Assembly (NCBI GenBank): GCA_002791835.1
Contig: PFNE01000032.1
Location: forward strand, 33,646 to 97,645
Length of the DNA: 64,000 nucleotides
Direction: 5' to 3'
From: Alphaproteobacteria bacterium CG_4_10_14_0_8_um_filter_37_21
GTDB lineage: Bacteria; Pseudomonadota; Alphaproteobacteria; Paracaedibacterales; UBA11393
Position numbers and translations under genes: made by a program
Shown: one piece after another, positions 1,533 to 32,449 of the stretch
Numbering within the stretch: position 1 is the stretch's first letter
How the letters are laid out: each line of letters opens with the position of its first letter
Notes under the pieces: model-generated
Told to the model about the DNA's origin: nothing
What the model saw: only the letters and a program-made list of their open reading frames with translations
Databases searched by the model: none

Positions 1533-2845
1533 TGAACTTTTGCTAGAATAGGTTCAGGAGAACGACCAACAGTTATAAATATAAGTTTATTAACATCTAT
1601 ATGGTCTTTCAACGCTTTTCTAATATTGCTTGGTTTTAATTGGGCAAGACGTTCTGGATAAGATGAAAGCCAACTTAGGGAACGCCCTAATAACTGTGTT
1701 TTTTGCATCAATTCAGCAATCTGGAGTGTATTTGTGCGTGCAAAGGCAAAGCTATGTTTTGCAGACTTCAGATATTCTTGAATTTTTTTATCTGATAAGT
1801 TAGTGTGTGCTTTACCCATCACATCTTTAATAATGTTAATTACTTCTGTTGTTTTTTCTGGTAAAAACCCTGCTTGACCAAGAACCACAGGAAAATTGGT
1901 ATCTCCAATAGCGCTTGCGCCAATATAATAAACAAGGCCTCGTTTCTCACGAACTTCTTTAAATAATTCTGATTCAGATCCTCCTATCATTTCCATACCT
2001 AGTGCAAAAGGCAAAAAATCATCATGCGTTGTATCAATAGAAGGGGATGCAAAAAACATAACGGTTTGCGGCACATCGTATTCACCGTGTTTGTGCTGAC
2101 CTAAATTTTTAAATTGTACTTTGGGTATTTTAGTTAATTTTGTATCAGAATATAATTTATCTGTGAAAGTATCTAATAGCTGATCCCATTCCTCAGGTTC
2201 ATAATCACCAACTAAGGTTACTTGCAGGTTCCTTTTTTGGAAAACATTTTGTAACGCACGTGTCAGGTCTTTATGGGTCAAAGCTGGTAGTGTTGTTAAT
2301 AATTTTTTTGTCTGACTATTAAGTGGATGGTCGCCAATAAATTGTTTATAAAACAATTGACGCGCAATGGCACTTGGGTCGTGTAAAGATTGTTCTAAGC
2401 CAGAAATTGTCTGCCTTACCAACAGATTTATTTTTTTTTGTGAAATGTCTTTTTTTGATAGTATCTTTTGAAGAATTGTAAATGCCTGTGACAAGTCTTT
2501 TTTGGGCACACGAACAGAAATAAAAACTTCAGTATCTTCTGCCGAAACCGATAAATCGCAGGGAATATTTTTTAAAACTTTTGCAATTTCTTGTTCTTCG
2601 TATGCTCCGCCACCGCGCTGTAAAACATCGCACAACATGGAAACAGTCCCTAGCTTATCCAAAGGGTCAGATGTCACACCTGTATTCTTAAAGGTAAAAA
2701 TAAAGGTGACAAAGCCCAAGTCATTAATTTTATGTGCCCAATAGACTTGCCCTTTAGGCGTTGTGTTTTCAGTTATCAAAAAACCGTTTGCAAATGCGCA
2801 ACTTACACATAACCATATTAAAATTAATATTTTCTGGGGATTCAT
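1529..2845 (-). CDS. M16 (pitrilysin/insulinase) family peptidase-like protein, exported
   Basis: 438-aa ORF with a signal peptide (ILILIWLCVSCAFA). It carries an M16 C-terminal-domain-like segment, GGSESELFKEVREKRGLVYYIGAS. I found no HxxEH zinc motif, so it is probably a non-catalytic type. It is translationally coupled to rnr. Confidence 0.65.
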   Translation of the reverse strand: MNPQKILILIWLCVSCAFANGFLITENTTPKGQVYWAHKINDLGFVTFIFTFKNTGVTSDPLDKLGTVSMLCDVLQRGGGAYEEQEIAKVLKNIPCDLSVSAEDTEVFISVRVPKKDLSQAFTILQKILSKKDISQKKINLLVRQTISGLEQSLHDPSAIARQLFYKQFIGDHPLNSQTKKLLTTLPALTHKDLTRALQNVFQKRNLQVTLVGDYEPEEWDQLLDTFTDKLYSDTKLTKIPKVQFKNLGQHKHGEYDVPQTVMFFASPSIDTTHDDFLPFALGMEMIGGSESELFKEVREKRGLVYYIGASAIGDTNFPVVLGQAGFLPEKTTEVINIIKDVMGKAHTNLSDKKIQEYLKSAKHSFAFARTNTLQIAELMQKTQLLGRSLSWLSSYPERLAQLKPSNIRKALKDHIDVNKLIFITVGRSPEPILAKVQ

Positions 2846-2866
2846 GATATTGAGCCTATATTAATG

Positions 2867-3094
2867 CTATTTTGTTAAAACTTTAACCGCAGCTTCTGAT
2901 GGATCTGATTTTTTTTCGCCCTGCGAAGCGTCCACAGGTTTTACGGCTTGAAATTCTTTTGGAATAGTAAGTGGTGGGTTATCTGTCACAGAAAATTCAT
3001 CAGGTTGTGAACGACTAAGGCCAAAGGCATCTTTTGCTGTGTCGCACCCAGTTAATAGTATACCAGCTATCGTCACTGTAAAAAAAATTTTCAT
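2867..3094 (-). CDS. Small lipoprotein (DUF3035-like)
   Basis: Start moved to ATG 3094, which has an AAGGAA RBS upstream. MKIFFTVTIAGILLTGC contains a lipobox. The mature part (GLSRSQPDEFSV..PPLTIP) resembles the alphaproteobacterial DUF3035 lipoprotein family, recalled from memory. Confidence 0.55.
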   Translation of the reverse strand: MKIFFTVTIAGILLTGCDTAKDAFGLSRSQPDEFSVTDNPPLTIPKEFQAVKPVDASQGEKKSDPSEAAVKVLTK

Positions 3095-3380
3095 AAACAT
3101 TCCTTCTTTTATTAACTTTATATATTTTAACATAACACAAACTGGTAACGTCTAAAGAATTATATTTAAAACGCGGTGCTCAAGATCATGAAAAATTTTA
3201 TGACCTGGCCCCCACACAATGAATAATGCATCCACCTTTTTCATATATAACGTTAACAGGCTGTCATTAGAAAAATGACAATGCATTTTCGGCACGGCTG
3301 TATCACCTATTCATCGTGCACTTAAATGTTTTTTATAGATAATCTGATGACAGCTAAATCCAGCAGCAACATTTAGCGAT

Positions 3381-4607
3381 TCAGCTTAAAGTTAACTTTT
3401 TATTTTTTTTCAGACTCATAAAACATAGAAAAGAAATAAGCGTTAAAACAATTGGGTAAAGTGCGGCATATACTTTGCTTCCAAATGTTACGCTTAACCA
3501 ATGGCAAACAAGGGGAGCAGCGCCCCCTAATATGCTAGCTGATAATGTTTGAACGATAGCAAATGTGCGTAGTCGTATTTCTTTTTTAAATAAAGATGGC
3601 GCTATGCTTATAACATTAACAACAATTAATTGTGAGCTTATGGCCAATAACAACTGCGGCAATATGTAAGCAACACTCGACGTTGAATTAAACACACAAT
3701 ACGATGCTGGCGCAAGAAAGGCAGCAAACAGAATAAAATATACTTTAATGTTCATGTTTGTTGGTTGCCTCTTTTTTTGCATCCACACAATGCCATAAAT
3801 AATGGCAGCAATAAAAATACAAATAAACGCATTTAAAAAAAACGGCAGGGGTGCTTTTTTCTCTAGCAACACAACCCCATATGTATTTAAAAATGTCGTA
3901 ATATAATACCACGGCCCAAAGGACATGCCCGTTAAAAAGAAGGCAATAATCATGTTCTTAACAACCTTTTTATCTTTTAATGTATTTAATAATCTTTTTT
4001 TTTCAATTCTTAGCTGAATAAAATTATCCGGCAAGCGTATAAGACGTAAACCGCCAGTCCAAAGACCTAAAAATCCAACTAATATAAATGCAGCGCGCCA
4101 AAAATGAATAACATTTAAATAATCAAGATAGCAAAAGCCACCCACAAGATAAGCAGCTGCGGTTCCAAGGGCAGCCATAACACCTAAATAAACAACAGAT
4201 TGGGATTGTTTTTGTTTATTGGTATGTGATTCATAGGTGTATATAGTTGCTGCAGCATACTCTACACCCGTAAAAACACCTTGTAATAATCTAAAAATTG
4301 CAATGTAAATAAGGGTAATCCAAGGGTTTATTGTAAAAGGCGTGCACCCCAAAAACATGGTCGAAAATGCCATGCCAACAACTGACACAACTAAAACCTT
4401 CTTTCGGCTAACGCCGTCACCTAGTGGCGACAATAGTAAGGCCCCAAGTGGTCTGCCTAAAAATCCAATCCAAAACAAACCATACTGAAGTGTGGCCTGT
4501 TGTTCTATTGTGAAGATGGAGGATAGTGTTTTTCCCAAGACAGGAAATAAAAGAGCAAACAAAACAAATTCGAAAAATTCTAAAAATGTGCCGTAATAAA
4601 CTAACAA
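3381..4607 (-). CDS. MFS transporter (metabolite:H+ symporter, ProP-like)
   Basis: 408 aa and multi-TM. It has a ProP-like N-terminal pattern: GTFLEFFEFVLFA...GFLGRPLGALLLSPLGDGVSRKKVL. The only in-frame start is TTG at 4607, and the N-terminus is unusually short (see findings). Confidence 0.7.
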   Translation of the reverse strand: MLVYYGTFLEFFEFVLFALLFPVLGKTLSSIFTIEQQATLQYGLFWIGFLGRPLGALLLSPLGDGVSRKKVLVVSVVGMAFSTMFLGCTPFTINPWITLIYIAIFRLLQGVFTGVEYAAATIYTYESHTNKQKQSQSVVYLGVMAALGTAAAYLVGGFCYLDYLNVIHFWRAAFILVGFLGLWTGGLRLIRLPDNFIQLRIEKKRLLNTLKDKKVVKNMIIAFFLTGMSFGPWYYITTFLNTYGVVLLEKKAPLPFFLNAFICIFIAAIIYGIVWMQKKRQPTNMNIKVYFILFAAFLAPASYCVFNSTSSVAYILPQLLLAISSQLIVVNVISIAPSLFKKEIRLRTFAIVQTLSASILGGAAPLVCHWLSVTFGSKVYAALYPIVLTLISFLCFMSLKKNKKLTLS

Positions 4608-4836
4608 ATTCTTTATCCATCTTGTTTAACCTCAATATCCTCACACACGTAGCATATGATTGGCAATATAAGTATTGCCTCTTTTTTATGTGGCATGTAT
4701 GTAATTTTTTTAGTAGTATAAATAGTGATTCCATTATTTCGTAAATTGCTGTCATGGATGTAAAAAGCATTTTTTCTAAAATTTGTGCTTTTTCATCATA
4801 TGGACAGTGCAACTTTTAACATGAGGAAACTTAATT

Positions 4837-5361
4837 ATGACAGCACCACTAATGCCAAAAGCAACAGCTGTATGGTTAATTGAAAATACAGCACTATCTT
4901 TTGAACAAATTTCAGCCTTTACAGGCTTACATATGATTGAAATTCAAGCAATTGCAGACGATGAAGTAGCATCATTAAAAGGCCTGAACAGCATAACAAA
5001 CAATCAACTAACAGCAGAAGAAATTAAACGCTGTGAAGCAGATCCTGATGCCCGTTTAGTGCTAACAAAGGTTGTAACACCTGATAACGTTTTAGGCGGC
5101 AAAAAAACACGCTATGTTGCTGTATCAAAACGCGGAGACCGTCCTGATGCAATTGCATGGCTAGTAAAATATTACCCAAACATACCAGATTCAAAAATTT
5201 GCGAATTGTTAAGCACAACAAAGCCAACAATTAAAGCCATTAAGATGAAAACACATTGGAACTCTCAAAATATTAAACCCCAAAATCCAGTGCAATTAGG
5301 CATGTGCTCACAAGCACAAATGGACTTTATTATTAGTCGCTACGGTACTACAAATAATTAA
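4837..5361 (+). CDS. DUF1013 family protein (TrcR-like cell-cycle regulator family of Alphaproteobacteria)
   Basis: The N-terminus MTAPLMPKATAVWLIENTALSFEQISAFTGLHMIEIQAIADDEVA matches the conserved DUF1013 N-terminus as I recall it. A GAGGAA RBS precedes the ATG. Confidence 0.75.
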   Translation: MTAPLMPKATAVWLIENTALSFEQISAFTGLHMIEIQAIADDEVASLKGLNSITNNQLTAEEIKRCEADPDARLVLTKVVTPDNVLGGKKTRYVAVSKRGDRPDAIAWLVKYYPNIPDSKICELLSTTKPTIKAIKMKTHWNSQNIKPQNPVQLGMCSQAQMDFIISRYGTTNN

Positions 5362-5371
5362 TTATTCATAA

Positions 5372-6088
5372 ATGCTTCAAGTAGAATTTTTATCTGTAAC
5401 ACTTGGGGGTGCAAAAATCCTTCATCAGGTTTCTTGCACTGTTCCAACTCACAGCATCATGGCTATTTTGGGTTTAAATGGTGCAGGAAAAACAACGCTT
5501 GTTAAAGCCATAGCCGGGCTTGTGCCTTTCACGGCAGATAAAGCAACTTTCAATAATCTCTCTTTAAAAAATTTAAAGTCGCATGAAATTGCGCAGCAAG
5601 GCATTATTTATGTACCTGAAAATAAGGAACTTTTTTATGGGCTATCTGTACAAGAAAACTTAGAAGTTGGGGCGCTTGTCAAAACCCTCATCCCTTCAAA
5701 AAAACACGTTCAAAAATTACTACAATCTGTATATGATTTATTTCCCAAACTCAAAGAACGCAGTACCCAAAAAGTAGAGACATTATCTGGCGGGGAACAA
5801 CAAATGGTTTGTATTGGGCGCGCCCTTATGGCGCAGCCGAAAGTTCTTATTTTAGATGAGCCAAGCCAGGGCCTTGCACCGCACATCGTGCAAAATCTTT
5901 TTAATAAAATTAAAGATTTAGCTAAAGCAGGCATGACTATTATTTTAAATGAACAAAATATCTATGCAGCATTAACAATAGCCGATAAAGCAATTGTTAT
6001 TGAAAATGGCATCGTGATTGAAGAGAAAAGCGCCGATAAGATGATGAATATGCTAACGCAAGGCAAACTATCATTACTCAATATTTAA
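5372..6088 (+). CDS. livF: ABC transporter ATP-binding protein, LivF type (branched-chain amino acid family)
   Basis: Walker A GLNGAGKTT, signature LSGGEQQM and Walker B LILDEPSQGLAP. Collinear with E. coli LivF (..YDLFPKLKERSTQ.., ..TIILNEQN..). Confidence 0.8.
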   Translation: MLQVEFLSVTLGGAKILHQVSCTVPTHSIMAILGLNGAGKTTLVKAIAGLVPFTADKATFNNLSLKNLKSHEIAQQGIIYVPENKELFYGLSVQENLEVGALVKTLIPSKKHVQKLLQSVYDLFPKLKERSTQKVETLSGGEQQMVCIGRALMAQPKVLILDEPSQGLAPHIVQNLFNKIKDLAKAGMTIILNEQNIYAALTIADKAIVIENGIVIEEKSADKMMNMLTQGKLSLLNI

Positions 6089-6172
6089 GTAAATAACAAT
6101 ATCTAGGAACGCGCGCAGTGCGACAATAGTTAAAAATTGCACTTGGGTTCAAAACAAAAAAACTGTTTTAAC

Positions 6173-7120
6173 TTAAGACGTTTTTTTATTACCCCACAGG
6201 GAAGCCACAATACCGCCGCTTAATAGTATGGCCGTCACACCAAGCGTTATACTTGTTGGCACTTTTGTAATTGGTAGAAAATGCACAGCAAAAATTTTAC
6301 CACCTATAAAAATCAACAGTAAGCTTAGTGAGTATTGCAGATATTTAAATTTATCTACCATCATTTGTAGTACAAAATAAAAAGACCTAAGCCCTAAAAT
6401 GGCAAAAATATTACTGCTATAGACAATAAAAGGATCTGTTGTGATGGAAAAAATAGCAGGGATGCTATCAACAGCAAAAACAACATCAACAAACTCTATC
6501 ATGATAAGGCTTAAAAACAATGGTGTTGCTGTATAGCATGTTTTAATCCATTTATCTTGATAAACTTCTGCCCCCTTTTTAAAAAACACTTCTTGATCAA
6601 GGTCATGATTTACATGAATAAATTTTTTAACAATGCGAAGCACCATGCTTTGAGAAATATCTTGATCAGTTTTTTGAGGCCTTAACATTTTAAGGCCTGC
6701 TATAACAAGGAATCCACCAAATATATAAAGAACAAAAGCCAATTCATTCACAACAATGCTGCCAAGGCCGATCAGAATACCACGCAAAACAACCGCGCCC
6801 AATATACCCCAAAACAATACTCTGTGTTGAAAGGCTGGGGGTATTTTAAAGTAAGAAAAAATCATTGAAATTATAAATATGTTATCAAGGGACAGAGACT
6901 TTTCAATTAAATACCCCGTTAAAAATTCTTGTGATTTGACACCCCCAAAGACCAAGTGCACGTAAGCAGCAAAACAAAAACTGATAACTATATAAAAAAT
7001 ACTAAGACCAAGACTTTTTTGAAAGCTTGGTGTGATGCCACGTTTATGAAAAATACCAAGATCTAAAATAAGTAGACTGAAGAAAATAACCAGTAGAAAT
7101 AACCAATGCAGTAGCGGCAT
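6173..7120 (-). CDS. TerC/Alx family integral membrane protein
   Basis: 315 aa and multi-TM. TerC-like motifs are EKSLSLDNIFI and FAVDSIPAIF..T.DPFIVYSSNIFAILGLRSFYF. Confidence 0.8.
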   Translation of the reverse strand: MPLLHWLFLLVIFFSLLILDLGIFHKRGITPSFQKSLGLSIFYIVISFCFAAYVHLVFGGVKSQEFLTGYLIEKSLSLDNIFIISMIFSYFKIPPAFQHRVLFWGILGAVVLRGILIGLGSIVVNELAFVLYIFGGFLVIAGLKMLRPQKTDQDISQSMVLRIVKKFIHVNHDLDQEVFFKKGAEVYQDKWIKTCYTATPLFLSLIMIEFVDVVFAVDSIPAIFSITTDPFIVYSSNIFAILGLRSFYFVLQMMVDKFKYLQYSLSLLLIFIGGKIFAVHFLPITKVPTSITLGVTAILLSGGIVASLWGNKKTS

Positions 7121-7228
7121 AGATTGAATATTACGAATAAATATTACTTAAAGCTTATCATTCTTTTATAACGCTTGCCACTGTTGCTGCCTTGGTGTGC
7201 AAAAAATATAGAAAACAATCTTTAAGGA

Positions 7229-8677
<1,449 letters not shown>

Positions 8678-8728
8678 TTAACCCTTGTGTATTATATTGT
8701 TTAAATCTGTTAGAACTACTTATTTTGT

Positions 8729-11488
8729 TTAGCTCTCAAGAGTGGCATTTTCTTCAACTGCCTCTTCAATGGGTTCATCTTGCGTGCCCTCGTCAGTGTC
8801 TGCCATTGGAACACGGCTAACGGCAACAACTTTTTCTTTGCCTTTAACGCGGAACAAGATAACACCTTGTGTTGCACGACCAGTAATGCGAACATCTTGT
8901 ATCGGGCAGCGGATTAATTGCCCGCCATCGGTTACCAACATAATTTCATCACCGCTTTCAACCGGAAAGGATGATATCACGCCACCATTACGGTCGTTTA
9001 CAATAATTGATTTGTACCCTTGAGTACCACGATTAGAAGCCCTGTAAGTATAGCTTGAACTGCGTTTACCGAAACCTTTTTCAGTAATCGTTAAAATAAA
9101 TTGTTCTTGGGCTGCCATTTCATTGAAACGGTCTTCAGATAAATCATGACCAGTAAGTGATTCACCTTCAGGTGCGTCTTCTTCACTATCAACTACATCT
9201 TGATTGTCTGCACGTAATTTATTAGACATTTTAATGTATTGCAGACGTTCTTCTGGCGTTGATTTCGTTACAGCAGATACCACAGTCATTGAAATAACTT
9301 CATCTTTACCTTGCAATTTAATACCGCGCACACCATTGGAGTTGCGGCCAACGAACACACGAATATTATCGTCTAAAATAAAACGGTTACACAGACCATT
9401 TTTCGTAAACAGCATCATTTCATCTTGCGCTGTACAGTGCTGAACACCAATTAATTTTTCGCCTTCATCCAAACGAATCGCTATTAAACCGTTAGAGCGA
9501 ATTTTTGAAAAATCAACCAACTTATTACGACGTACATTTCCATTCGATGTTGCAAAAACAAGGAACTGATCTTCATGCCTGCTAGAATCGTCTGGCAGAA
9601 TTACAACAGTTGCAACTTGGTCATTTTGTTCTAAGTTCAACAGGTTAATAATTGCGCGCCCTTTAGATTGTGGGGACGCTAGCGGCAACTTATAAACCTT
9701 TGTAGAAAATACTTTGCCACTTGTTGTAAAGAAAAGAACTTCACTATGCGTATTAGCAACAAAAACATCTGATACAGCATCTTCATCTTTAGTGTTCATG
9801 CCCGTACGGCCCTTGCCACCACGACGCTGCGCGCGATAAGTGGACAATGGTACGCGCTTGATGTATCCTTCTGTGCTGACAGTTACAACCATTTCTTCTT
9901 TTTGGATGAGGTCTTCAATATCAACCTCTGACGATGAATCTTCAATCACCGTTTTTCTGGGCGTTGCGAATTTTTCTTTAACGTCTTGGACTTCTTGTTT
10001 TAAAATTTCTAAAACACGTACGCGAGATGCTAAAATTTCTAAGTATTCTTTAATTTTATCAGCAATGTCTTGTAAATCTTTTAAGATTTTATCGCGCTCC
10101 ATGCCTGTAATACGGTGCAGGCGCAAATCAAGAATTGCATTCGCTTGAACTTCTGTTAATTGATACGCCTTTGCTAATGTTTCGCTATCAACATTTGCTT
10201 CAACAAGCTGTATCATCGGGGCAATACTTGATGCTTCCCAGGTTGTTGCTAGTAATTTTTCACGTGCATCTTGACGGTCCATAGATGATCGTATCAGCTC
10301 TATCACAGGATCAAGGTTTGCTACAGCGACAGCAAAACCTAATAATACATGGGCTTTTTCACGCGAACGTGCAAGTTCAAACCGTGTGCGACGCACGATT
10401 ACTTCTTCACGAAATTCAATAAAGTTCGTTAAAAAATCTTTTAAGGTTAGCTGTTGTGGCTTACCATGAACAAGGCCAAGCATATTACAGCCAAAACTTG
10501 TTTGCAGGGCTGTATGCTTGTATAGTTGGTTTAAAACAACCTCAGCGTGGCCGTCACGTTTAATTTCAATTACAATACGCATACCCTTACGGTTTGATTC
10601 GTCCCGTAAGTCGGATATGCCTTCAACCGTTTTTGCACGCACAAGTTCGGCAATACGCTCTACCAATTTTGATTTATTTATTTGGTATGGAATTTCTGTC
10701 ACAATTATGGCTTCGCGGTCTTTTTTAACTTCTTCAATATGTGTTTTAGCCCGCATAATCACAGATCCACGACCTGTATGATAGGCAGAATGAATGCCAC
10801 TGCGCCCCATAATAGAACCACCTGTTGGAAAGTCTGGACCCGGAATATATTCCATCAGGTCTTGAATAGCAAGGTCAGGGTTCTCAACCAGCGCACAAAC
10901 AGCATCAATCACTTCACCCAAATTATGGGATGGGATATTAGATGCCATACCAACAGCGATACCGCTCGTACCGTTTACAAGAAGCCCTGGAACTTTAGAT
11001 GGCAAAACAATTGGTTCTAATAGCCGCTCATCATAGTTTGGCTTAAAATCAACCGTATCTTTATCAAGGTCTTCTAATAATTCATGGGCAACACGGGCTA
11101 AACGACATTCTGTATAACGCATAGCCGCAGCAGGGTCACCGTCAACAGAACCAAAGTTACCTTGACCTGAGATCAAAGGCAATCTTAAACTAAAATCTTG
11201 CGTTAAACGCACTAAAGCATCATAGATCGCGTTATCACCATGGGGATGATAGTCTCCCATAACCTTACCGACAACGTTAGCAGATTTTCTAAAAGGCTTA
11301 TTATAGTCGTTACCACCTTGTTTCATAGCATACAAAACACGTCTATGAACAGGTTTTAAACCATCACGGACATCTGGCAAAGCACGGGAAACTATCACAC
11401 TCATGGCATAAGCCAGGTATGATTTCTTCATTTCATCTTCAATATTAATCGGAACGATATCGTTATGCGCTAAGTTCGTATTATCCAT
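8729..11488 (-). CDS. gyrA: DNA gyrase subunit A
   Basis: 919 aa. LPDVRDGLKPVHRRVLY, the active-site region AAAMRYTE and a QRDR-like HPHGDNAIYD, followed by a C-terminal beta-pinwheel repeat region. Confidence 0.97.
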   Translation of the reverse strand: MDNTNLAHNDIVPINIEDEMKKSYLAYAMSVIVSRALPDVRDGLKPVHRRVLYAMKQGGNDYNKPFRKSANVVGKVMGDYHPHGDNAIYDALVRLTQDFSLRLPLISGQGNFGSVDGDPAAAMRYTECRLARVAHELLEDLDKDTVDFKPNYDERLLEPIVLPSKVPGLLVNGTSGIAVGMASNIPSHNLGEVIDAVCALVENPDLAIQDLMEYIPGPDFPTGGSIMGRSGIHSAYHTGRGSVIMRAKTHIEEVKKDREAIIVTEIPYQINKSKLVERIAELVRAKTVEGISDLRDESNRKGMRIVIEIKRDGHAEVVLNQLYKHTALQTSFGCNMLGLVHGKPQQLTLKDFLTNFIEFREEVIVRRTRFELARSREKAHVLLGFAVAVANLDPVIELIRSSMDRQDAREKLLATTWEASSIAPMIQLVEANVDSETLAKAYQLTEVQANAILDLRLHRITGMERDKILKDLQDIADKIKEYLEILASRVRVLEILKQEVQDVKEKFATPRKTVIEDSSSEVDIEDLIQKEEMVVTVSTEGYIKRVPLSTYRAQRRGGKGRTGMNTKDEDAVSDVFVANTHSEVLFFTTSGKVFSTKVYKLPLASPQSKGRAIINLLNLEQNDQVATVVILPDDSSRHEDQFLVFATSNGNVRRNKLVDFSKIRSNGLIAIRLDEGEKLIGVQHCTAQDEMMLFTKNGLCNRFILDDNIRVFVGRNSNGVRGIKLQGKDEVISMTVVSAVTKSTPEERLQYIKMSNKLRADNQDVVDSEEDAPEGESLTGHDLSEDRFNEMAAQEQFILTITEKGFGKRSSSYTYRASNRGTQGYKSIIVNDRNGGVISSFPVESGDEIMLVTDGGQLIRCPIQDVRITGRATQGVILFRVKGKEKVVAVSRVPMADTDEGTQDEPIEEAVEENATLES

Positions 11489-11683
11489 GAATAACTAAAT
11501 ACTATTTAAGTGTTAACATATCCTACCATATATTCATTTGTTTTGCTGAAAAAAATGGCATATGTTCCTGAGCACTAAATATGCAGACATAACTATCAAA
11601 CTGTTTTTCATCCAGCCGGTTGTCGTGCATTTAAAAAAAGAAGATACTTAAAAGAGAACCAAATTTGTTTTAATAATATCGCT

Positions 11684-12115
11684 ATGGATATAGTCGCCAT
11701 AATATCGGGCATAATAATTTTATATTTAGGGGGCGAGGCACTCATTAAAGGTGCAGTATCTGTTGCCAGACATTTAAAAATTTCTAAAATTTTAGTAAGC
11801 TCTGTTATCGTGGGCTTTGGTACATCAATGCCAGAAATGACGGTTTCAGTAGACGCCATGTTGAAAAATACACCCGAAATTGCCGTTGGAAATGTAATTG
11901 GTAGCAATATTGCAAATATTTTATTAATACTGGGGATATCTGCCCTGATAACCCCCTTTCGCATGACTAATAACAGTATAAAAAGAGATGTTTGTGTGAT
12001 GCTGAGTGCGACAATAATTTTTTCTTTATTGGGTGCCTTGCAAAAAATTGGTTTTTTTCACGGATTATTATTATTAGGGATATTAGTAACTTATATAATT
12101 TATTCCTACATTCGC
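11684..12115 (+). pseudogene. 5' fragment (~145 codons) of a CaCA-family (YrbG-like Na+/Ca2+) antiporter gene
   Basis: MDIVAIISGIIILYLGGEALIKGAVSVARHLKISKILVSSVIVGFGTSMPEMTVS...GNVIGSNIANILLILGISALITPF corresponds to TM1-5 with the alpha-1 repeat (GTSxPE). Similarity ends near 12110 and the frame then runs out of register into nhaA-derived sequence. Confidence 0.7.
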
Positions 12116-12665
12116 GCCCTACATTATTGTTGGCATTTTTTTATGGGTTTGCGTTTTAAAATCAGGCATACATGCAACATTAGCCGGCATTATAGTAGCA
12201 CTGTCGATTCCACTTCGCACAAAAAATGTGTCTGATCACTCACCTGCAATTTCTTTGGAACACAAGCTACACCCTTGGGTCGCGTACGGCATACTGCCAA
12301 TATTCGCCTTTGCAAATGCCGGAATTCCCTTAAAAGGATTTTCTTTAGACATGTTACGCCATCCAATTACCATGGGCATTGCGCTTGGTTTATTTTTTGG
12401 CAAGCAAATTGGCATTATGACAATGACAATCATAGGCGTCTCCATTAAAAAATGCGCACTGCCAAAAGGTGTAACTTGGAAGCAATTTTATGCGATGTCT
12501 CTTTTAACTGGCATTGGCTTTACCATGAGCTTGTTTATTGGAAACCTAGCCTTTGACAATGCACACAATAAAATTTTCATTAGATTAGGGGTCATCTTTG
12601 GCTCTCTTTTATCTGGAATCGCAGGCTATATCTTGCTGAAAAAAACTTGTCCAAACAAGGACTAG
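12099..12665 (+). pseudogene. nhaA: 3' fragment (~185 codons) of Na+/H+ antiporter nhaA
   Basis: Reading the frame of ORF 12228..12665 back to the TAA at 12096-12098 gives YIIVGIFLWVCVLKSGIHATLAGIIVALSIPL...SLEHKLHPWVAYGILPIFAFANAG...GIGFTMSLFI. This is collinear with the C-terminal half of E. coli NhaA. The N-terminal half is absent. Confidence 0.8.
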
Positions 12666-12947
12666 GGAACAAGAATAGACTATAAAAAAGATAGGTTGCA
12701 TACATACTAATAATGTGTACTCTCTACGATTTAGAAGTTTTGTGCGTTCTAATCTTAAACACTTTTGAAATGTATTTTTTATAATGGTATGTTCATTCTT
12801 GATTCAACAGCGTTCGGGTGTGCAAGACCTTCTATCATGAACAACACAAAACCCCATGTAGAAATAACGTTATAAATTTCTAGCATTATGCGGGGAAAGT
12901 TCCTATATTAATAATGAACCCATACTACATAGATAAAGGATATTTAA

Positions 12948-13550
12948 ATGACGAATCTTGTTACACAAAAAGCACCAAATTTTACAGCACCTGCTGTTAT
13001 GGGGGATAACACTATCAATGAAGAATTCAACTTAATGGAATACCTTAATGGGGATATGGGTGTTTTGTTCTTCTACCCCCTAGATTTTACATTTGTTTGC
13101 CCATCAGAAATATTGGCATTTCAAAACCGTATGGCTGAATTTAAAGAACGCAATGTTAAAGTTGTTGCCGTATCTGTTGATTCTGCTTTCAGTCACATTG
13201 CTTGGAAAAATACACCCGTAAATAACGGTGGATTAGGAAACGTTCAGTTCCCTATGGTTGCCGACCTTACAAAGCAAATTTCAAAAGACTATCATGTTTT
13301 AATTAATGATGCTGTTGCACTGCGTGGTACATTTTTAATTGACCAAGATGGTATTGTTCAGCATCAAGTTATTAACAACCTACCACTTGGCCGTAATGTA
13401 GATGAAGCCTTACGCATGGTTGATGCCCTTGCTTTTCACCAAAAAAACGGCGAAGTGTGCCCAGCTGGCTGGAGCAAAGGTAAAAAAGGAATGGTTGCAA
13501 ATGCACAAGGTGTTGCATCTTTCTTAAAAGATAACGCAGCATCTCTATAA
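12948..13550 (+). CDS. Typical 2-Cys peroxiredoxin (AhpC/Prx1 subfamily)
   Basis: 200 aa. Peroxidatic Cys context FYPLDFTFVCPSEI and resolving Cys context GEVCPAGW. AAAGGA RBS upstream. Confidence 0.9.
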   Translation: MTNLVTQKAPNFTAPAVMGDNTINEEFNLMEYLNGDMGVLFFYPLDFTFVCPSEILAFQNRMAEFKERNVKVVAVSVDSAFSHIAWKNTPVNNGGLGNVQFPMVADLTKQISKDYHVLINDAVALRGTFLIDQDGIVQHQVINNLPLGRNVDEALRMVDALAFHQKNGEVCPAGWSKGKKGMVANAQGVASFLKDNAASL

Positions 13551-13567
13551 TATTGGTGCCTCCGCCT

Positions 13568-14314
13568 TTATGGCTGGGGGCGCTTACACATATAAATAAT
13601 GGGAATCAGAAGCACCCCAACAAGTGCCCGTGCAATATAGGCGCCAAGTACATATGTTACAAAAATTGTGTGCATACCTAAGGCGACTTTTGCAAAAATA
13701 CTCCATGCCAAAACACTAAAAATCATATTATCGACAAACGATGAAGACAAGCTTGCTAATAATGTGCGCGCCCATAAAAAACGGCCGTGCGTTAGTTTTT
13801 TTAAAAAGCTAAAAATGCCAACATCATAAAATTGACTTATACCAAAAGCACATAAGCTGGCGATAAAAATACGCGCCGATGGTACAAACAATGTTTGCAT
13901 GGCATTATAGGCATCCTGCGAACAAGATGCAGGCATATGCCCTAAATCAACAATCATTAAGACGCTGGTTAAAATAGTTGCAAAAAAACAAAGATAAATA
14001 TTACGCCTGGCTGCTTTTGCGCCATAAAATTCGGTAATAATGTCTGTTGTTAAATAAAGCGTTGCAAACAACACTGTACCAAGCGCTACAGGTTCTGCCA
14101 ATATATTATACTGGCACAAACGCAACACTTGAATATTGGCCAGAACGATGGCTAGCGAATTATAAACATACAAGCCAACAAGCCCAAATAGACGTTGTGA
14201 AAACAATATACACAAACCACTTGTCAAAATAGATATAATCGTCACAAATTCAGGTGGTAAGCTTTGTAATTCACTGATGATACGTGTCATAGAATCATCA
14301 ATATTAATGTGCAT
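13568..14314 (-). CDS. yhhQ: Queuosine precursor transporter (YhhQ/DUF165, VUT family)
   Basis: Multi-TM protein with the YhhQ-like segment LTTDIITEFYGAKAARRNIY and a C-terminal FVDNMIF. The start is ambiguous between TTG 14320 and ATG 14314. Confidence 0.7.
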   Translation of the reverse strand: MHINIDDSMTRIISELQSLPPEFVTIISILTSGLCILFSQRLFGLVGLYVYNSLAIVLANIQVLRLCQYNILAEPVALGTVLFATLYLTTDIITEFYGAKAARRNIYLCFFATILTSVLMIVDLGHMPASCSQDAYNAMQTLFVPSARIFIASLCAFGISQFYDVGIFSFLKKLTHGRFLWARTLLASLSSSFVDNMIFSVLAWSIFAKVALGMHTIFVTYVLGAYIARALVGVLLIPIIYMCKRPQP

Positions 14315-14401
14315 AAACAAACCTTTAAAACCGGGAAATATAAGTAAACTTAATATTCACGAATATACTATATTTTATAAGTAATGGCTACCAGCGCTTA
14401 T

Positions 14402-14431
14402 AAAAAAACGCCACAGAAAACTCTGCAGCGC
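14402..14431 (-). terminator. Intrinsic terminator downstream of groEL
   Basis: Minus strand reads GCGCTGCAGAG-tttt-CTGTGGCGT followed by TTTTTTT. The stem is about 9 bp and includes G-U pairs. Confidence 0.55.
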
Positions 14432-14454
14432 TTTTAACTTTAAACAAAAATGGT

Positions 14455-16125
<1,671 letters not shown>

Positions 16126-16168
16126 TTAATCCTTTAATTTAAAGTAAAATATATTTGTTGAACGTAGA

Positions 16169-16459
16169 CTAGGCCGCCATGACACCCATAATATCTGATT
16201 CTTTCATAACGATATATTCTTCGCCGTCAATTTTAATTTCTGTACCGCTCCATTTTGCAAACAAAACGCGGTCGCCAGATTTCACATCCATTGGGATAAC
16301 TTGACCAGCTTCACTGGGTTGACCAGAACCAACTGCAACAATTTGGCCTTCCATTGGTTTTTCTTGTGCAGAGTCTGGAATAATAATTCCACTTGCAGTT
16401 TTCTCCTCTGACTCGATGCGCTTTACAAGAACACGATCATGTAGGGGTCTAAATTTCAT
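16169..16459 (-). CDS. groS: Co-chaperonin GroES
   Basis: Start moved to ATG 16459 ([14 protein letters not shown]), with an AAGGAG RBS upstream. 96 aa. Confidence 0.95.
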
Positions 16460-16505
16460 AGAGATCTCCTTTATATTTTGTTGGTTATCATAAGGAAAAG
16501 GCATT

Positions 16506-16532
16506 TTAGCACTCTCACCCTCTGAGTGATAA
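16506..16532 (-). promoter_or_regulatory. CIRCE operator (HrcA binding site) upstream of groES
   Basis: TTAGCACTC-N9-GAGTGATAA against the consensus TTAGCACTC-N9-GAGTGCTAA (one mismatch). It lies 47 nt upstream of the groES ATG. Confidence 0.85.
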
Positions 16533-16559
16533 TTTAACGCGGCAACATAATTCTGTCAA
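16531..16559 (-). promoter_or_regulatory. Putative sigma70-type groESL promoter abutting CIRCE
   Basis: Minus strand reads TTGACA (16559-16554), a 17-nt spacer, then TAAATT (16536-16531). The -10 element overlaps the CIRCE arm. Confidence 0.4.
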
Positions 16560-16861
16560 TAAAAAAACTTCTCATCATGACAAAAAACAATCCAAATATT
16601 AACTTACCTATTTTTGATCATGTGCATAACTTCAAATTTTTGAATGACTTCATATATTTTTTTATTATTTGCAAAATAAGTTTTTACTTAATGAACCATT
16701 TTACGAGCCATAATATAACGACATTCTATTCTTTAAATACAAGTTGTTTTGGTTAGAAAAACGTTAACATTTCTATGTGGCAAGGCACTTTTACGACCCT
16801 TCTGGTCAAGACAAATGGTTTTTTTTATGTCAGCATAAAAAGATAAGCTTAAAATAATTTA

Positions 16862-18034
16862 ATGTATATGTTGTTTAAAAAGATAACTTTATCAATATTA
16901 TTGATTCCTTTTTTTTGCTTTGGTCAGGAAACCAATTTTTATGACGAAAATAACAACAACACAATATTTACAAACACAGAAAACCCGACAGACAAAGATT
17001 TTAGGCCCCAAAATTACCACATTATAACAGAAAAGACTTTTCAATCATTTTTAGAAAATTTAGAAAATTTTACTACAATAGCTGCCATGGTAAACCTTGT
17101 ATTTTCTTCTGTAGACTTTAAAATAAATGGCCACAATATAATCGCTTTCCTTGATGGACAAACCTTAGGAATCCCCAATACTTGCAATCTTACCAGTATA
17201 GTTGGCAAGATTTCGAATACAAGCGAAGAAAAAGATCTTTTATCCATTTTATTGTTTTTAAAGAAAAAAAATTGCTCAACATACCTTGCTTTACCTAAAT
17301 GCTTTATAAGTATCGGACGAAACACTTATTGCACCTTATACCATAAAGCTGAAGGAAAACAGGCAGACATCCCCATAAATAAGTTTGGTCAGCATTCTAA
17401 GCCAGATTGTGTTTTAGCTATCATAAGAAGAATTGCACACTCTTTATTTGACTTCCACGACATATTGCGCCCAAGCAAGGACGAAATCGATTCTTTTATG
17501 AAATCCGAAAAAGCAAGTTTGAAATTTTATTTAGGTGAAACAGATTCCCCTCCATGCACATCACCTGTGGGGACAGACGCTACCTTCTTAAGGTTATTTC
17601 TTTCTATAAATCATGGTGATTTACATACAGGCAATATATTTATAACAGCACAAGAGAAAATTACTTTTATAGATTTTTTATCTATGGCACGTAATTTGCC
17701 AGATCGAGATGGATATGCACCAATTACAAACGATGTGTCCTATTTTATTGCATGTACTTTTTGCCATCACCGCGAATTATTTAAAAAACCTTTAGGCAGA
17801 GGACTTTTATTACATTCCATGGTCCATTTTCTGGCAGCATACCTATCGCATATATCACCAGATTATCACCAAGATTTTTTTTATTATATATATGATCATT
17901 TCAAGATGCTTTTAAAACACCTAATCTTTCCTGGACCTGAAAACCAAGAAACGCGAATTCATTTTTATGACATTTTTTCATTAAATATCATACCAGAAAC
18001 CAGAAAGATTCTAGAAAGCGTAGCATGCACTTAA
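16862..18034 (+). CDS. Hypothetical exported protein with an APH/ChoK-like (protein-kinase-fold) catalytic motif
   Basis: 390 aa. The N-terminus LFKKITLSILLIPFFCFGQE looks like a signal peptide. HGDLHTGNIF (17612-17635) followed by ITFIDF (17660-17677) matches the catalytic loop plus metal-binding Asp of the aminoglycoside/choline kinase family. Confidence 0.5.
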   Translation: MYMLFKKITLSILLIPFFCFGQETNFYDENNNNTIFTNTENPTDKDFRPQNYHIITEKTFQSFLENLENFTTIAAMVNLVFSSVDFKINGHNIIAFLDGQTLGIPNTCNLTSIVGKISNTSEEKDLLSILLFLKKKNCSTYLALPKCFISIGRNTYCTLYHKAEGKQADIPINKFGQHSKPDCVLAIIRRIAHSLFDFHDILRPSKDEIDSFMKSEKASLKFYLGETDSPPCTSPVGTDATFLRLFLSINHGDLHTGNIFITAQEKITFIDFLSMARNLPDRDGYAPITNDVSYFIACTFCHHRELFKKPLGRGLLLHSMVHFLAAYLSHISPDYHQDFFYYIYDHFKMLLKHLIFPGPENQETRIHFYDIFSLNIIPETRKILESVACT

Positions 18035-18058
18035 ATTATATATAACTGTTTTAAGAAC

Positions 18059-18802
18059 TTATGACCATGACTTATCATCATGTGTTAGAATTTTATTCAG
18101 ACCATTATATGCTTCTAACGTACCAATATCACACCATAAGTGATGATAGCGTGCGCCCCATAAGCGATTATTTTTTTCTGCATGATGGAAAACAGGCAGC
18201 ATGGGGTAGTGTTTATCCTGTGATTTATAATTTAAAAACCCTTTTTTAGACCATATTTGCACCCCACCATAAATATACGAAGGGCGAGTATAAGATTTTT
18301 CAGAGTGTTCCTTATGCCTTAAAGGAAAAATTGTTTCTAAGTAACCTTTTTGTGGATAATAATCAGCATCTTTGTTAAAAAATAATGCATTTTCTTTTGG
18401 CACCATCATTAACAAAGCATCCATAATTTTGGTATCAAACGCATAAGCCATACGTTCAAGAAAATCAGGATCATTAAACCAAATATCCCCATTTATGGTC
18501 ACAAAAATATCATCTAATTCTGTTATAGCGTTCTTTATACCACCACCAGTTTCTAGAATTTCCTTTTCATTAATCAACACGATTTTTGGATCATTTTGAA
18601 AATGGTAATGAATTTGCTTTGCTAAGTAGTGCGTATTAATCACAATTTTTTCAACACCAAAATCTTTTAAATAGTTCACAATATATTGAATGCAGGGAAT
18701 ACTTTGAACAGGCAACAAGGGCTTTGGGGTTGTAAGTGTTAAAGGGCGTAGGCGCGTACCCATTCCTGCCGCTAAAATCATTGCTGTTTTTATATTGACC
18801 AT
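18059..18802 (-). CDS. murU: Sugar-phosphate nucleotidyltransferase, MurU-like (MurNAc-1-P uridylyltransferase)
   Basis: MILAAGMGTRLRPLTLTTPKPLLPV...IVINTHYLAKQI...ETGGGIKNA...VTINGDIW is collinear with Pseudomonas MurU as I recall it. Confidence 0.7.
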   Translation of the reverse strand: MVNIKTAMILAAGMGTRLRPLTLTTPKPLLPVQSIPCIQYIVNYLKDFGVEKIVINTHYLAKQIHYHFQNDPKIVLINEKEILETGGGIKNAITELDDIFVTINGDIWFNDPDFLERMAYAFDTKIMDALLMMVPKENALFFNKDADYYPQKGYLETIFPLRHKEHSEKSYTRPSYIYGGVQIWSKKGFLNYKSQDKHYPMLPVFHHAEKNNRLWGARYHHLWCDIGTLEAYNGLNKILTHDDKSWS

Positions 18803-19042
18803 AGATTTGCGCGCCTTAATTCAAAAGTAAAATGATGAACGCCATTTATAAACTTAGTGTATAAATAGGGGGGCGCCCTTATAGAAGATAAGTAATTTTA
18901 ACATTTGTAAAAAAGTCTGTACACTCACCATCATTAGTTTAAAAAAACAAGAATCCGTTTAGTTGCAGCACTAATATTCGCGTGTTTCTTGAAAAAACAG
19001 TTTGTGATATTCTATTGCTATAGATATTTGGAGCTTACGTTA

Positions 19043-19552
19043 ATGTCTCTTGCTAAAGTGAATCGTAATAAAGAACCTAAAAGTTTTTTGGGGGCACGCC
19101 CCCTTTTATTTGATCGCCTTGTTGACATGGATTCAACAAATCCCTTTGAAACGGCTGATCATCATTATTTAACAAAAGATCAGGTAAAACAATCTATTCA
19201 ATTAGAAATTAGCCGTTTGCTGAACACGCGAAGAGTGGGAGGCATGCCAAAAAATCAAGATGATATATTTCAGGATTCGGAGGAAAGTTTAAGTGCGCCA
19301 TCTTATTTTGGCTTACCAGATTTCCAATCTTACGATGCTGCAAATGCCCAAGATTGGGATTTAATTGCAAATTTGATAAAAAATTCTATTAGTTATTTTG
19401 AGACGCGCCTTAAAAATATAGAAGTAGAAGTTCTTAATTTTAATAATAATAAACAACTTCTAGAGGTTAATATTACAGGCAGTTTAAACCTAAAAAAAAC
19501 AAAGGGAGAGGTTACTTTTCCGGTTGTAATTGACTGTACACCGCGCCGTTAA
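19043..19552 (+). CDS. tssE: Type VI secretion baseplate protein TssE (gp25-like)
   Basis: Start moved to ATG 19043, with GGAG 8 nt upstream. TssE landmarks occur in the expected order: PLLFDRLVD, LEISRLLNTRR, YFGLPDF, ISYFETRL, LEVNITGSL. Confidence 0.75.
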   Translation: MSLAKVNRNKEPKSFLGARPLLFDRLVDMDSTNPFETADHHYLTKDQVKQSIQLEISRLLNTRRVGGMPKNQDDIFQDSEESLSAPSYFGLPDFQSYDAANAQDWDLIANLIKNSISYFETRLKNIEVEVLNFNNNKQLLEVNITGSLNLKKTKGEVTFPVVIDCTPRR

Positions 19553-19629
19553 TTCAAAAGACACAAGTGAACAAAATACGAACCAAAAGGTGCAAACCCA
19601 CTAAATGAAAAATTTATGCACCTTATGAA

Positions 19630-20268
19630 CTAACTGTTTTTTTTCCTCATTTTATTCACAAAGTCTACAAGTCCTACTTGGCGGTGGCGTTTTAAGCGCT
19701 CGGCCTTCAAGATAAGCTCTATTTGTTTTATGCTTTTATCTAGATCGCGATTGATAATAACATAATCATATTCAGGCCAATGGCTAATTTGAAATAAGGA
19801 TTCAGTCATACGCTGTTCAACAACTTCCTTTGTGTCCGTTGCGCGCCTGTTTAATCTGTCTTCTAATGCTTGAATTGATGGGGGTAAAATAAAAACTGTG
19901 ATAAGGTCTTGGGCACACTTTTCTTGTAGTTGCTGTGTTCCTTGCCAGTCAATATCCAATAAAACATCTTTACCAGAGGTTATGATCTCTTCCACAGATT
20001 GTTTTGATGTGCCGTAATAATTACCAAATACTTTTGCATGCTCCAAAAAACCACCGCTTTGTAAGCGTTCTTCAAAGTGTTTTTGATTTTCAAAGTGATA
20101 ATCTTTGCCGTGAACTTCTCCCTTTCTTATGGGGCGGGTTGTAACAGATACTGATAATTGAACTTGATTATCTTTTGCAAGTAGGGCGCGCGCTATGGTG
20201 GTTTTTCCAGCCCCAGATGGGGATGATAGCACTAACATAAGGCCTTTACGTTTTATGCTGTCTTGCAT
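19630..20268 (-). CDS. gmk: Guanylate kinase
   Basis: 212 aa. P-loop SSPSGAGKTT, plus VSVTTRPIRKGEVHGKDYHF. Confidence 0.93.
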   Translation of the reverse strand: MQDSIKRKGLMLVLSSPSGAGKTTIARALLAKDNQVQLSVSVTTRPIRKGEVHGKDYHFENQKHFEERLQSGGFLEHAKVFGNYYGTSKQSVEEIITSGKDVLLDIDWQGTQQLQEKCAQDLITVFILPPSIQALEDRLNRRATDTKEVVEQRMTESLFQISHWPEYDYVIINRDLDKSIKQIELILKAERLKRHRQVGLVDFVNKMRKKNS

Positions 20269-20822
20269 TAAAGCTCTCTTTCATGACTATTTGGTTTTAT
20301 CAGTTCGTCTTCAAATCCGAAGGTCGTTAAGTCTGTCATTCGATCGGGAAATAAAATGCCATTTAGGTGATCCATTTCATGTTGAACAACACGCGCATGA
20401 AAGCCCTCGGCAACGCGGGTGTGCTTTTCCCCTAATATATCATAAAAAGAATAGCTTATTTTTTTATATCGGGGCACTTTTCCAACAAGTGCTGGCAAAG
20501 AAATACATGCCTCCCATCCAACGAGTTGTTCATTGGATATGACTGTAACTTCTGGGTTTATTAAGGCATGTAGGTCCATAGGCTCTACAGATTCAACGCC
20601 ATATCTTGGATGAATTTTATCTGGCAGCCTGAAAATAAAAATACGTTTTGACACATTAACTTGAGGGGCAGCTAATCCTAAGCGTTTATTTTGCTGTTTT
20701 AGGGTGAACATCATGTCATGAATAAGTTCATGGTAATTTTCTATATGCTTCAAATTAACAGGTTCTGCAACTTGCTTAAGAACCGGATTTCCCATATGGG
20801 TAAAAGAAAGTAGCTTTGGCAT
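20268..20822 (-). CDS. def: Peptide deformylase
   Basis: Motif 1 GLAAPQV, motif 2 EACIS (a variant of EGCLS) and motif 3 QHEMDHLNG. One-nt overlap with the gmk start. Confidence 0.88.
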   Translation of the reverse strand: MPKLLSFTHMGNPVLKQVAEPVNLKHIENYHELIHDMMFTLKQQNKRLGLAAPQVNVSKRIFIFRLPDKIHPRYGVESVEPMDLHALINPEVTVISNEQLVGWEACISLPALVGKVPRYKKISYSFYDILGEKHTRVAEGFHARVVQHEMDHLNGILFPDRMTDLTTFGFEDELIKPNSHEREL

Positions 20823-20870
20823 ATAATGACCCCCTTTATTTTTTAGCTTCTTGCTTGGTATTCCAATAAA

Positions 20871-21146
20871 TTATACTTGGTTTTTATCGTGATCACAATT
20901 TTTTTTTGTGTCTGTATCTTTTTCGGGTACAGGATCATAAGTACCTTGTGTTTTTGCATCATCAGAAAGTGGCTGACACTTCATCATGCGCCGAAAAGTA
21001 ATGGCAATACCGCGCCTAAGCCCATGCAGTTCTATTGCTTGAATAGCGTAACGGGAACATGTTGGTGTGTACTTACAACTTGGTGGCAAAAGGGGGGAAA
21101 TAAGCCACCTGTAAAAATGGAGTAATGCGATAACCAAACGTTTCAT
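20871..21146 (-). CDS. yidD: Membrane protein insertion efficiency factor YidD
   Basis: LLHFYRWLISPLLPPSCKYTPTCSRYAIQAIELHG is the conserved YidD core. Confidence 0.85.
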   Translation of the reverse strand: MKRLVIALLHFYRWLISPLLPPSCKYTPTCSRYAIQAIELHGLRRGIAITFRRMMKCQPLSDDAKTQGTYDPVPEKDTDTKKNCDHDKNQV

Positions 21147-21221
21147 AATATGTGACCTTTTATGCTTGTGATAGACATAAATATCAAGTAACTTTATGTC
21201 TTTGATTCTAAGATAATAATG

Positions 21222-21617
21222 CTATTTTAGCCACATTGTCATAGCACTTGTTGTGCCGCAAAGAAAAGCACCCCAGGCAACATCGATAAGGCTTATATAT
21301 AGTGGCCATTTTTTGATGATGGCAAGATTTGTAAAGTCATAAATAGCATAGGTCAGCAACCCAAATATGGCACCCCAAAAAAAGGCTGATATAACACTGC
21401 TTTGCGCTTTAGGAAGCACAAATAAGATAATACCCAAAATTAAACATACGTAAACAACGCCAGCTGCCATGTAATTTAATTGCATACCTGTTGGGGTAAT
21501 ATGAAAAAAATGACCCAAATGTTTTTTGTATAATGACTTTGCCAAAAAACCAAGCCATACAGTATCCATTAATAATATTGTTACACTAGAAATGCAAAAC
21601 ATACGTAAATAAGTCAT
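21222..21617 (-). CDS. DUF2177 family membrane protein
   Basis: 131 aa with 4 TM segments. LLMDTVWLGFLAKSLYKKHLG and YAIYDFTNLAIIKKWP..SLIDVAWG resemble DUF2177, recalled from memory. Confidence 0.55.
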   Translation of the reverse strand: MTYLRMFCISSVTILLMDTVWLGFLAKSLYKKHLGHFFHITPTGMQLNYMAAGVVYVCLILGIILFVLPKAQSSVISAFFWGAIFGLLTYAIYDFTNLAIIKKWPLYISLIDVAWGAFLCGTTSAMTMWLK

Positions 21618-21765
21618 ATAATACCCCCTTTAGATTCTGTGCTTGCGGCTAAGCTATATGTGTGTATTTTGATTATGATCTTACATGATTTGATAACCGG
21701 TGACCATACATATGCCACGCGATGAAATGTATTGTTAAATATTTCTTTCTTTCCCCTCTTATGTA

Positions 21766-29364: not shown

Positions 29365-29471
29365 ATAGCAGTCAAATATAGGTTTATCTTTAATATACAC
29401 ACACAAAAACATTGATTAAAGGGCATAATCAATGTATTTTAAACATAAAAGTAATTTGATAAACAATAAAT

Positions 29472-32360: not shown

Positions 32361-32449
32361 CCGTTCATTTTCAACATATACTTGACTTTCATTTTTTTTT
32401 CTTATATATTCTGTGATTATTGCTATTATATTCTGTAAAAGGAAATACT

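Follow-up and report, generated by a model that had tools for sequence, protein, structure and literature searches.

A Deletion-Fusion Pseudogene, Very Probably Left by Loss of 1,166 bp From Adjacent CaCA Exchanger and nhaA Genes, in an Uncultured Alphaproteobacterium

The interval between gyrA and ahpC in the window, which is the whole 64-kb stretch of DNA that was analysed, is almost certainly a non-functional deletion-fusion pseudogene that arose when one deletion of 1,166 bp joined the 5' half of a CaCA-type exchanger gene to the 3' half of nhaA. The undeleted form of the locus occurs in the same species, the breakpoints can be placed to within a 2-nt microhomology, and the same junction is found in contigs from about 10 samples. 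Lesions of other kinds are found in the same pair of genes in related lineages.

The Locus and Its Reading Frames

The 5' remnant of the CaCA gene (YrbG/NCX_Mj-type) occupies positions 11684 to 12113 of the forward strand and retains 143 native codons plus 1 nt, spanning TM1-TM5 and the first alpha-repeat (GFGTSMPE). The 183-aa ORF to which it belongs (11684-12235) matches PF01699 (Na_Ca_ex) over residues 3-142, corresponding to positions 3-150 of the 151-position profile (E 4.9e-28). This is the only Pfam stretch in the ORF, and the second Na_Ca_ex domain with its alpha-2 repeat is absent. The remainder of the ORF (12114-12235, forward strand) is an out-of-frame tail of 40 codons and a stop at 12233-12235, which consists of nhaA-derived DNA read in the wrong frame and translates as RALHYCWHFF...KKCV. 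The 3' remnant of nhaA (12114-12665, forward strand) comprises codons 211-393 and the stop codon at 12663-12665, roughly TM7-TM12, and lies in a frame that is open from position 12099. Translation of this frame from the TAA at 12096-12098 to position 12665 matches PF06965 (Na_H_antiport_1) over profile positions 199-374 of 374 (E 1.5e-62). The end of CaCA homology and the start of NhaA homology both fall within 12110-12114, and the two frames are offset by 1 nt (position 11684 is 2 mod 3, position 12099 is 0 mod 3).

The Pfam matches, frames and homology borders agree with a preliminary description of this DNA, made from the sequence alone, in which the 5' half of a CaCA gene was said to be joined out of frame to the 3' half of nhaA. 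The motifs on which that description drew (GFGTSMPE, GSNIANILLILG, YIIVGIFLWVCVLKSGIHATLAG, and GIGFTMS) are all present in the translations. Its division of the two proteins into halves also stands, while the lengths are to be adjusted, the native CaCA codons numbering 143 instead of about 145 and the NhaA residues 183 instead of about 190.

The nhaA sequence of the window has no start codon of its own and falls short of the full length of about 390 aa and 12 TM; compared with the intact protein of the same species (P0241, described below), codons 1-210 are missing. Neither the CaCA C-terminal half nor the NhaA N-terminal half was found by tblastn elsewhere in the 64-kb window, where the sole match, of the CaCA C-terminal half to the retained N-terminal half, reflects the expected internal-repeat similarity. 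The remnant ORFs correspond to the NCBI proteins PIZ33036.1 and PIZ33037.1 (identical or 99% identical), both of which are annotated as "hypothetical proteins" on a 112-kb contig of the MAG with taxid 1973897. The locus is anchored on the left by gyrA (8729-11488, reverse strand), a 919-aa ORF whose orthologue on contig L086 carries the Pfam domains DNA_topoisoIV and DNA_gyraseA_C, and on the right by a gene for an AhpC-type peroxiredoxin (12948-13550, forward strand), a 200-aa ORF whose orthologue on the same contig carries AhpC-TSA and 1-cysPrx_C.

The Undeleted Allele and the Size of the Deletion

The 90%-identity protein cluster that contains the NhaA remnant also holds P0241, a protein of 393 aa whose gene was found on 24 or more contigs, the longest of 247 kb. 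The loci of this undeleted allele (type B, L086-L093) are 98-99% identical to the window at the nucleotide level over ~20 kb and have the same gene order, namely gyrA on the reverse strand, CaCA, 18 nt, nhaA (393 aa), ahpC, Vut_1 and groEL/ES. BLAST comparison of L086 with the window gives two collinear blocks of 98.0-98.8% identity. The first pairs L086:1-9464 with window positions 2647-12113 and includes the counterpart of the CaCA 5' remnant (L086:9037-9464); the second pairs L086:10629-21182 with positions 12112-22663. Between them, L086:9465-10630 is unmatched, a length of 1,166 bp (2 mod 3) that contains CaCA codons 144-315, the 18-nt spacer and nhaA codons 1-210. The preliminary description had proposed a single deletion between neighbouring genes of the same strand, and the undeleted locus is laid out as that proposal predicts. 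The same gyrA...ahpC locus thus provides both the orthologues in synteny and the size of the deletion, and its conspecific CaCA gene is itself frameshifted.

The deletion junction lies at 12110-12113 (forward strand), where the two BLAST blocks overlap by 2 nt, TC, at 12112-12113. Direct comparison of the flanks showed neither filler DNA nor a longer repeat at the breakpoints. Downstream of the junction, the nhaA remnant shows 10 differences from L086:10631-11182 over 552 nt (98.2% identity). Position 12110 is A in the window, which gives the Ile codon also found in a sister species, and G in type B. The junction needs no additional mutation, because this A matches the Ile codon of the sister species, and A would seem to be the ancestral base.

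The polarity of the change can be read from more distant relatives. Three loci (L098-L100) from a "Rickettsiales bacterium" MAG, whose CaCA is 68% identical, carry an intact 315-aa CaCA and, 12-36 nt downstream, an NhaA that is likewise intact (393 or 385 aa), in a neighbourhood that differs from gyrA...ahpC. The sister species is 81-85% identical to the window in nucleotide sequence, has the same gyrA...ahpC synteny and an intact 315-aa CaCA, and has the same CaCA 3' end. Judged by these outgroups and by the CaCA 3' end of the sister species, the undeleted state is ancestral.

The ancestor of the species would accordingly have carried, between gyrA and ahpC and on one strand, a CaCA gene of 315 codons, an 18-nt spacer and an nhaA gene of 393 codons. 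One event of illegitimate recombination or slippage at the TC microhomology would have removed the 1,166 bp, and because this length is 2 mod 3, the CaCA frame runs out of frame into nhaA and ends at a stop after 40 nonsense codons. What remains is a CaCA fragment without TM6-10 and the second alpha-repeat, and an NhaA fragment without a start codon, TM1-6 and the residues aligned with Asp133, Asp163 and Asp164 of the Escherichia coli protein. Bacteria are well known to lose genes through kilobase deletions at very short microhomologies, by which adjacent genes become fused.

That the deletion was a single event of this kind is inferred from the flanks, both of which follow the undeleted allele without any break in collinearity and meet at one clean breakpoint with a 2-nt microhomology and no filler. 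Two or more events, for instance truncation of the two genes independently and a later loss of the stretch between them, would lead to the same end state, and sequences of that end state by themselves do not separate a summed outcome from a single step. Lesions in the cassette, moreover, clearly tend to recur in this clade. No intermediate allele appeared, however, in any of the recovered contigs and protein clusters, and a history in several steps is very improbable.

Parts of the Two Transporters That Were Lost

The alignment of P0241 with E. coli NhaA (PDB 1zcd, 7a0w; E about 1e-110) runs from end to end. Residue 211 of P0241, the first retained in the window, corresponds to E. coli residue 206, so that the remnant represents E. 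coli residues 206-388. Asp133, Asp163 and Asp164 of the E. coli protein correspond to D138, D168 and D169 of P0241, all encoded within the deleted 1,166 bp, and the absence of the Asp163/Asp164 pair noted at the outset is upheld by this alignment. In E. coli NhaA, Asp133 and the Asp163/Asp164 pair have roles in ion binding, and TM4 and TM11 cross one another.

The reconstructed 315-aa CaCA protein aligns over its whole length with NCX_Mj residues 9-296 (E 2e-35). Its second domain, marked by GSCLPEL, is kept in the type B fragment P0077 and in the sister-species protein P0248 and lies within the lost stretch, as expected from the earlier statement that the C-terminal half with the second alpha-repeat is missing. 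The ion sites of NCX_Mj are built jointly by alpha-1 and alpha-2, and because sites of this type need both repeats, a half CaCA protein cannot form them. The shift of frame and the loss of essential parts, taken together, suggest that neither transporter can be made from this locus.

Reproducibility of the Junction

The window appears to be MAG-derived, and since MAG contigs can be chimeric, the junction might in principle be a chimeric or collapsed join in a genome in which both genes are intact; one related contig (L107) is indeed a mosaic upstream of the locus. L001 and L101-L110 nevertheless carry the junction at 99.9-100% identity, and it recurs on no fewer than 12 contigs drawn from about 10 samples, including contigs of 100 kb and 112 kb. 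The assemblies concerned are those of ENA, JGI and Logan, with MEGAHIT (k141) and SPAdes (NODE) among the assemblers, and the deletion allele is also represented by the NCBI MAG proteins PIZ33036.1 and PIZ33037.1. Since many samples and assemblers give the same junction, misassembly, which the preliminary description had named as something that would refute its reading, is excluded for practical purposes. The intact nhaA allele, for its part, lies on a background that is consistently 1-2% diverged, which identifies the two forms as distinct lineages and not as mis-joined reads. The probability left to an assembly artefact is negligible.

The mosaic contig L107 (ENA ERZ27293371) is of interest in itself. 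Its positions 1-790 align with window positions 10719-11507, in the gyrA 5' region, at only ~87% identity, with 81 differences that are mostly at third positions and change 9 of 256 residues. Over window positions 11508-12606, deletion junction included, its identity to the window is 100%. A contig from another sample (L108) begins at window position 11485 and has the SNP 11507 T>A in common with L107. L107 may be either a chimeric assembly of co-occurring lineages or a true recombinant in which the deletion allele lies within a diverged background.

Independent Lesions in Related Lineages

The CaCA gene of type B is itself disrupted. A +1 insertion of A, which changes GACTAATAAC to GACTAAATAAC at L086:9318-9322 (aligned with window positions 11964-11968), shifts the frame at codon 96/97 and produces a TAA at codon 97, leaving ORFs of 96 and 209 aa. 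This frameshift occurs in all eight of the type B loci shown and is absent from the window. Type B CaCA has also lost 3 nt in frame from an ATT repeat (window positions 12061-12072). A full-length conspecific CaCA (at least 90% identity) was not found among 5.8 billion protein clusters, in which the best full-length match, at 76%, belonged to the sister species.

In the sister species, nhaA is the gene affected. Codons 1-347 have been lost through an in-frame deletion of 1,041 bp that runs from the start ATG to an internal Met348 and sits at a 5-nt AATGA microhomology, with breakpoints that differ from those of the window. The relic of 43 codons (L096:1986-2140, also on L094, L095 and L097) is ~71% identical to type B. 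The sister species and the window lineage were found together in one sample (ERZ27293366; L097 and L103).

The three lesions have three sets of breakpoints and affect CaCA twice within one species and nhaA twice across two species, which points to three independent inactivations of the cassette. This pattern is what would be expected from relaxed selection under deletional bias, and with the independent lesions as its basis, relaxed selection on the cassette in this clade is the reading we infer. The same three lesions might instead record adaptive loss, in which exchange of Na+/H+ and of Ca2+/cations is repeatedly selected against in the niche of this lineage and recombination may carry the deletion allele into diverged backgrounds, as L107 hints; this is possible but considered unlikely. 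The preliminary description had spoken of reductive evolution, a term that the three independent lesions in relatives justify for the cassette only; the other genes of the window are apparently intact.

Several other NhaA sequences were considered as sources of synteny. The closest matches, P0122 and P0124 (70-75% identity), are encoded on contigs of 1.3-1.6 kb, too short to inform on synteny, and were dropped; the one readable downstream neighbourhood differs. P0125 was rejected because its gene ends at a contig edge, and P0126 because its contig has 0.39x coverage and many frameshifts. An exact look-up of P0121, an NCBI gene model with a non-ATG start, returned no contig. A scan of a collection of genome contigs with the NhaA remnant gave matches in mixed Proteobacteria only, at 59% identity or less, and the species is absent from that collection.

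State and Age of the Remnants

The remnants are little decayed. No further stops or frameshifts were found in the 183 codons of the NhaA remnant, and relative to type B it differs at nine codons, six synonymously and three by conservative non-synonymous changes. Between type A (the deletion allele) and type B, the pooled gyrA, ATP synthase beta-like, groEL and ahpC genes differ by 56 synonymous and 7 non-synonymous changes, and the counts of 6/3 and 56/7 are too small for a test of relaxed constraint. As the type A copies are almost clonal, the deletion is recent relative to the 1-2% divergence between A and B. The undecayed state of the NhaA remnant fits such a recent deletion, and residual expression of a C-terminal fragment would still be compatible with it.

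These features also bear on whether the short form could be functional, be it as a C-terminal NhaA fragment of 145-187 aa (TM7-12), as a 183-aa half CaCA protein, or as a CaCA-NhaA chimera made by +1 ribosomal frameshifting. Both ORFs are open, gene callers have turned them into PIZ33036.1 and PIZ33037.1, and the NhaA remnant is free of disabling mutations. CaCA proteins arose through internal duplication, and half-size units are conceivable in principle on that ground. Set against this, no Shine-Dalgarno-like motif (AGGAG) was seen upstream of the possible starts GTG 12228 and 12102, and in a promoter and terminator scan of 11400-13000, matches were not enriched over shuffled sequences. The residues aligned with the ion-binding aspartates of E. 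coli NhaA (Asp133 and Asp163/Asp164) are gone, and relatives have destroyed the same cassette by other lesions. A short architecture conserved among relatives, which the preliminary description had regarded as evidence against a pseudogene, was likewise not what the search returned: the short form occurs in near-clonal copies only (99.9-100% identical), and the next relatives, at 98-99% identity, have a full-length nhaA. A functional short form is very improbable, and the locus is best regarded as a pseudogene.

Genomic Context and Significance

Outside this locus, the window is a dense array of housekeeping genes that appear to be intact, including gyrA, an ATP synthase beta-like gene, TerC, groESL, ahpC, lnt, CTP synthase, a malic enzyme-PTA fusion, pnp, MscS, PhaC, a XerC/D-like recombinase and two tRNA genes. 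Three ORFs have no Pfam match at E <= 1e-5, at 16862-18034 (forward strand, 390 aa), 32420-33814 (forward strand, 464 aa) and 36731-37741 (reverse strand, 336 aa). In-frame indels make the first of these differ in length from strain to strain (L086, L087 and L088 have 388 or 390 aa). The ORF at 18989-19552 (forward strand), whose orthologue has a gp25-like baseplate domain (GPW_gp25), is isolated, with housekeeping genes around it, and the ORF at 28462-29412 (reverse strand) encodes a tyrosine recombinase of the XerC/D type, with Phage_integrase and SAM-like N-terminal domains. Phage or T6SS genes were not noticed adjacent to either of these two ORFs.

The locus introduces no new mechanism or family. 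Its value lies in a clean case of deletional gene loss within a species, dated by comparison and with breakpoints resolved to a 2-nt microhomology, and in the small natural experiment that it offers, in an uncultured alphaproteobacterium, on selection of a relaxed or negative kind acting on cation/proton antiport. For annotation, PIZ33036.1 and PIZ33037.1 are to be described as remnants of one deletion pseudogene, and metabolic reconstructions should score the lineage as without NhaA and without this CaCA exchanger.

Comparison With Known Antiporters and Pseudogenes

The type of event is well known, this instance of it is unannotated, and the two genes were, in their ancestral form, typical of the NhaA and CaCA families. 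P0241 resembles E. coli NhaA (PF06965; PDB 1zcd, 4au5, 7a0w) in keeping the residues aligned with Asp133 and Asp163/Asp164, whereas the window holds only the C-terminal 183 codons and is a gene fragment, not a functional member of the family. The reconstructed CaCA protein likewise has both alpha-repeats, with GTSMPE and GSCLPEL, in common with exchangers such as E. coli YrbG and NCX_Mj (PDB 3v5u, 5hwx), and differs from the window sequence, in which the first Na_Ca_ex domain is kept and the second, with its alpha-repeat, is deleted.

Deletion pseudogenes and fused pseudogenes have reportedly been described from bacteria under deletional bias. The split and decaying genes of Rickettsia and Mycobacterium leprae differ from the present case, which arose within a species (1-2% divergence), belongs to the MAG of an uncultured alphaproteobacterium from groundwater and is surrounded by 64 kb without general gene decay. 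What the locus has in common with those genomes is a kilobase-scale deletion at a very short microhomology, the survival in place of remnants of the adjacent genes that it crossed, and the occurrence of parallel, independent lesions of the same dispensable genes in related lineages.
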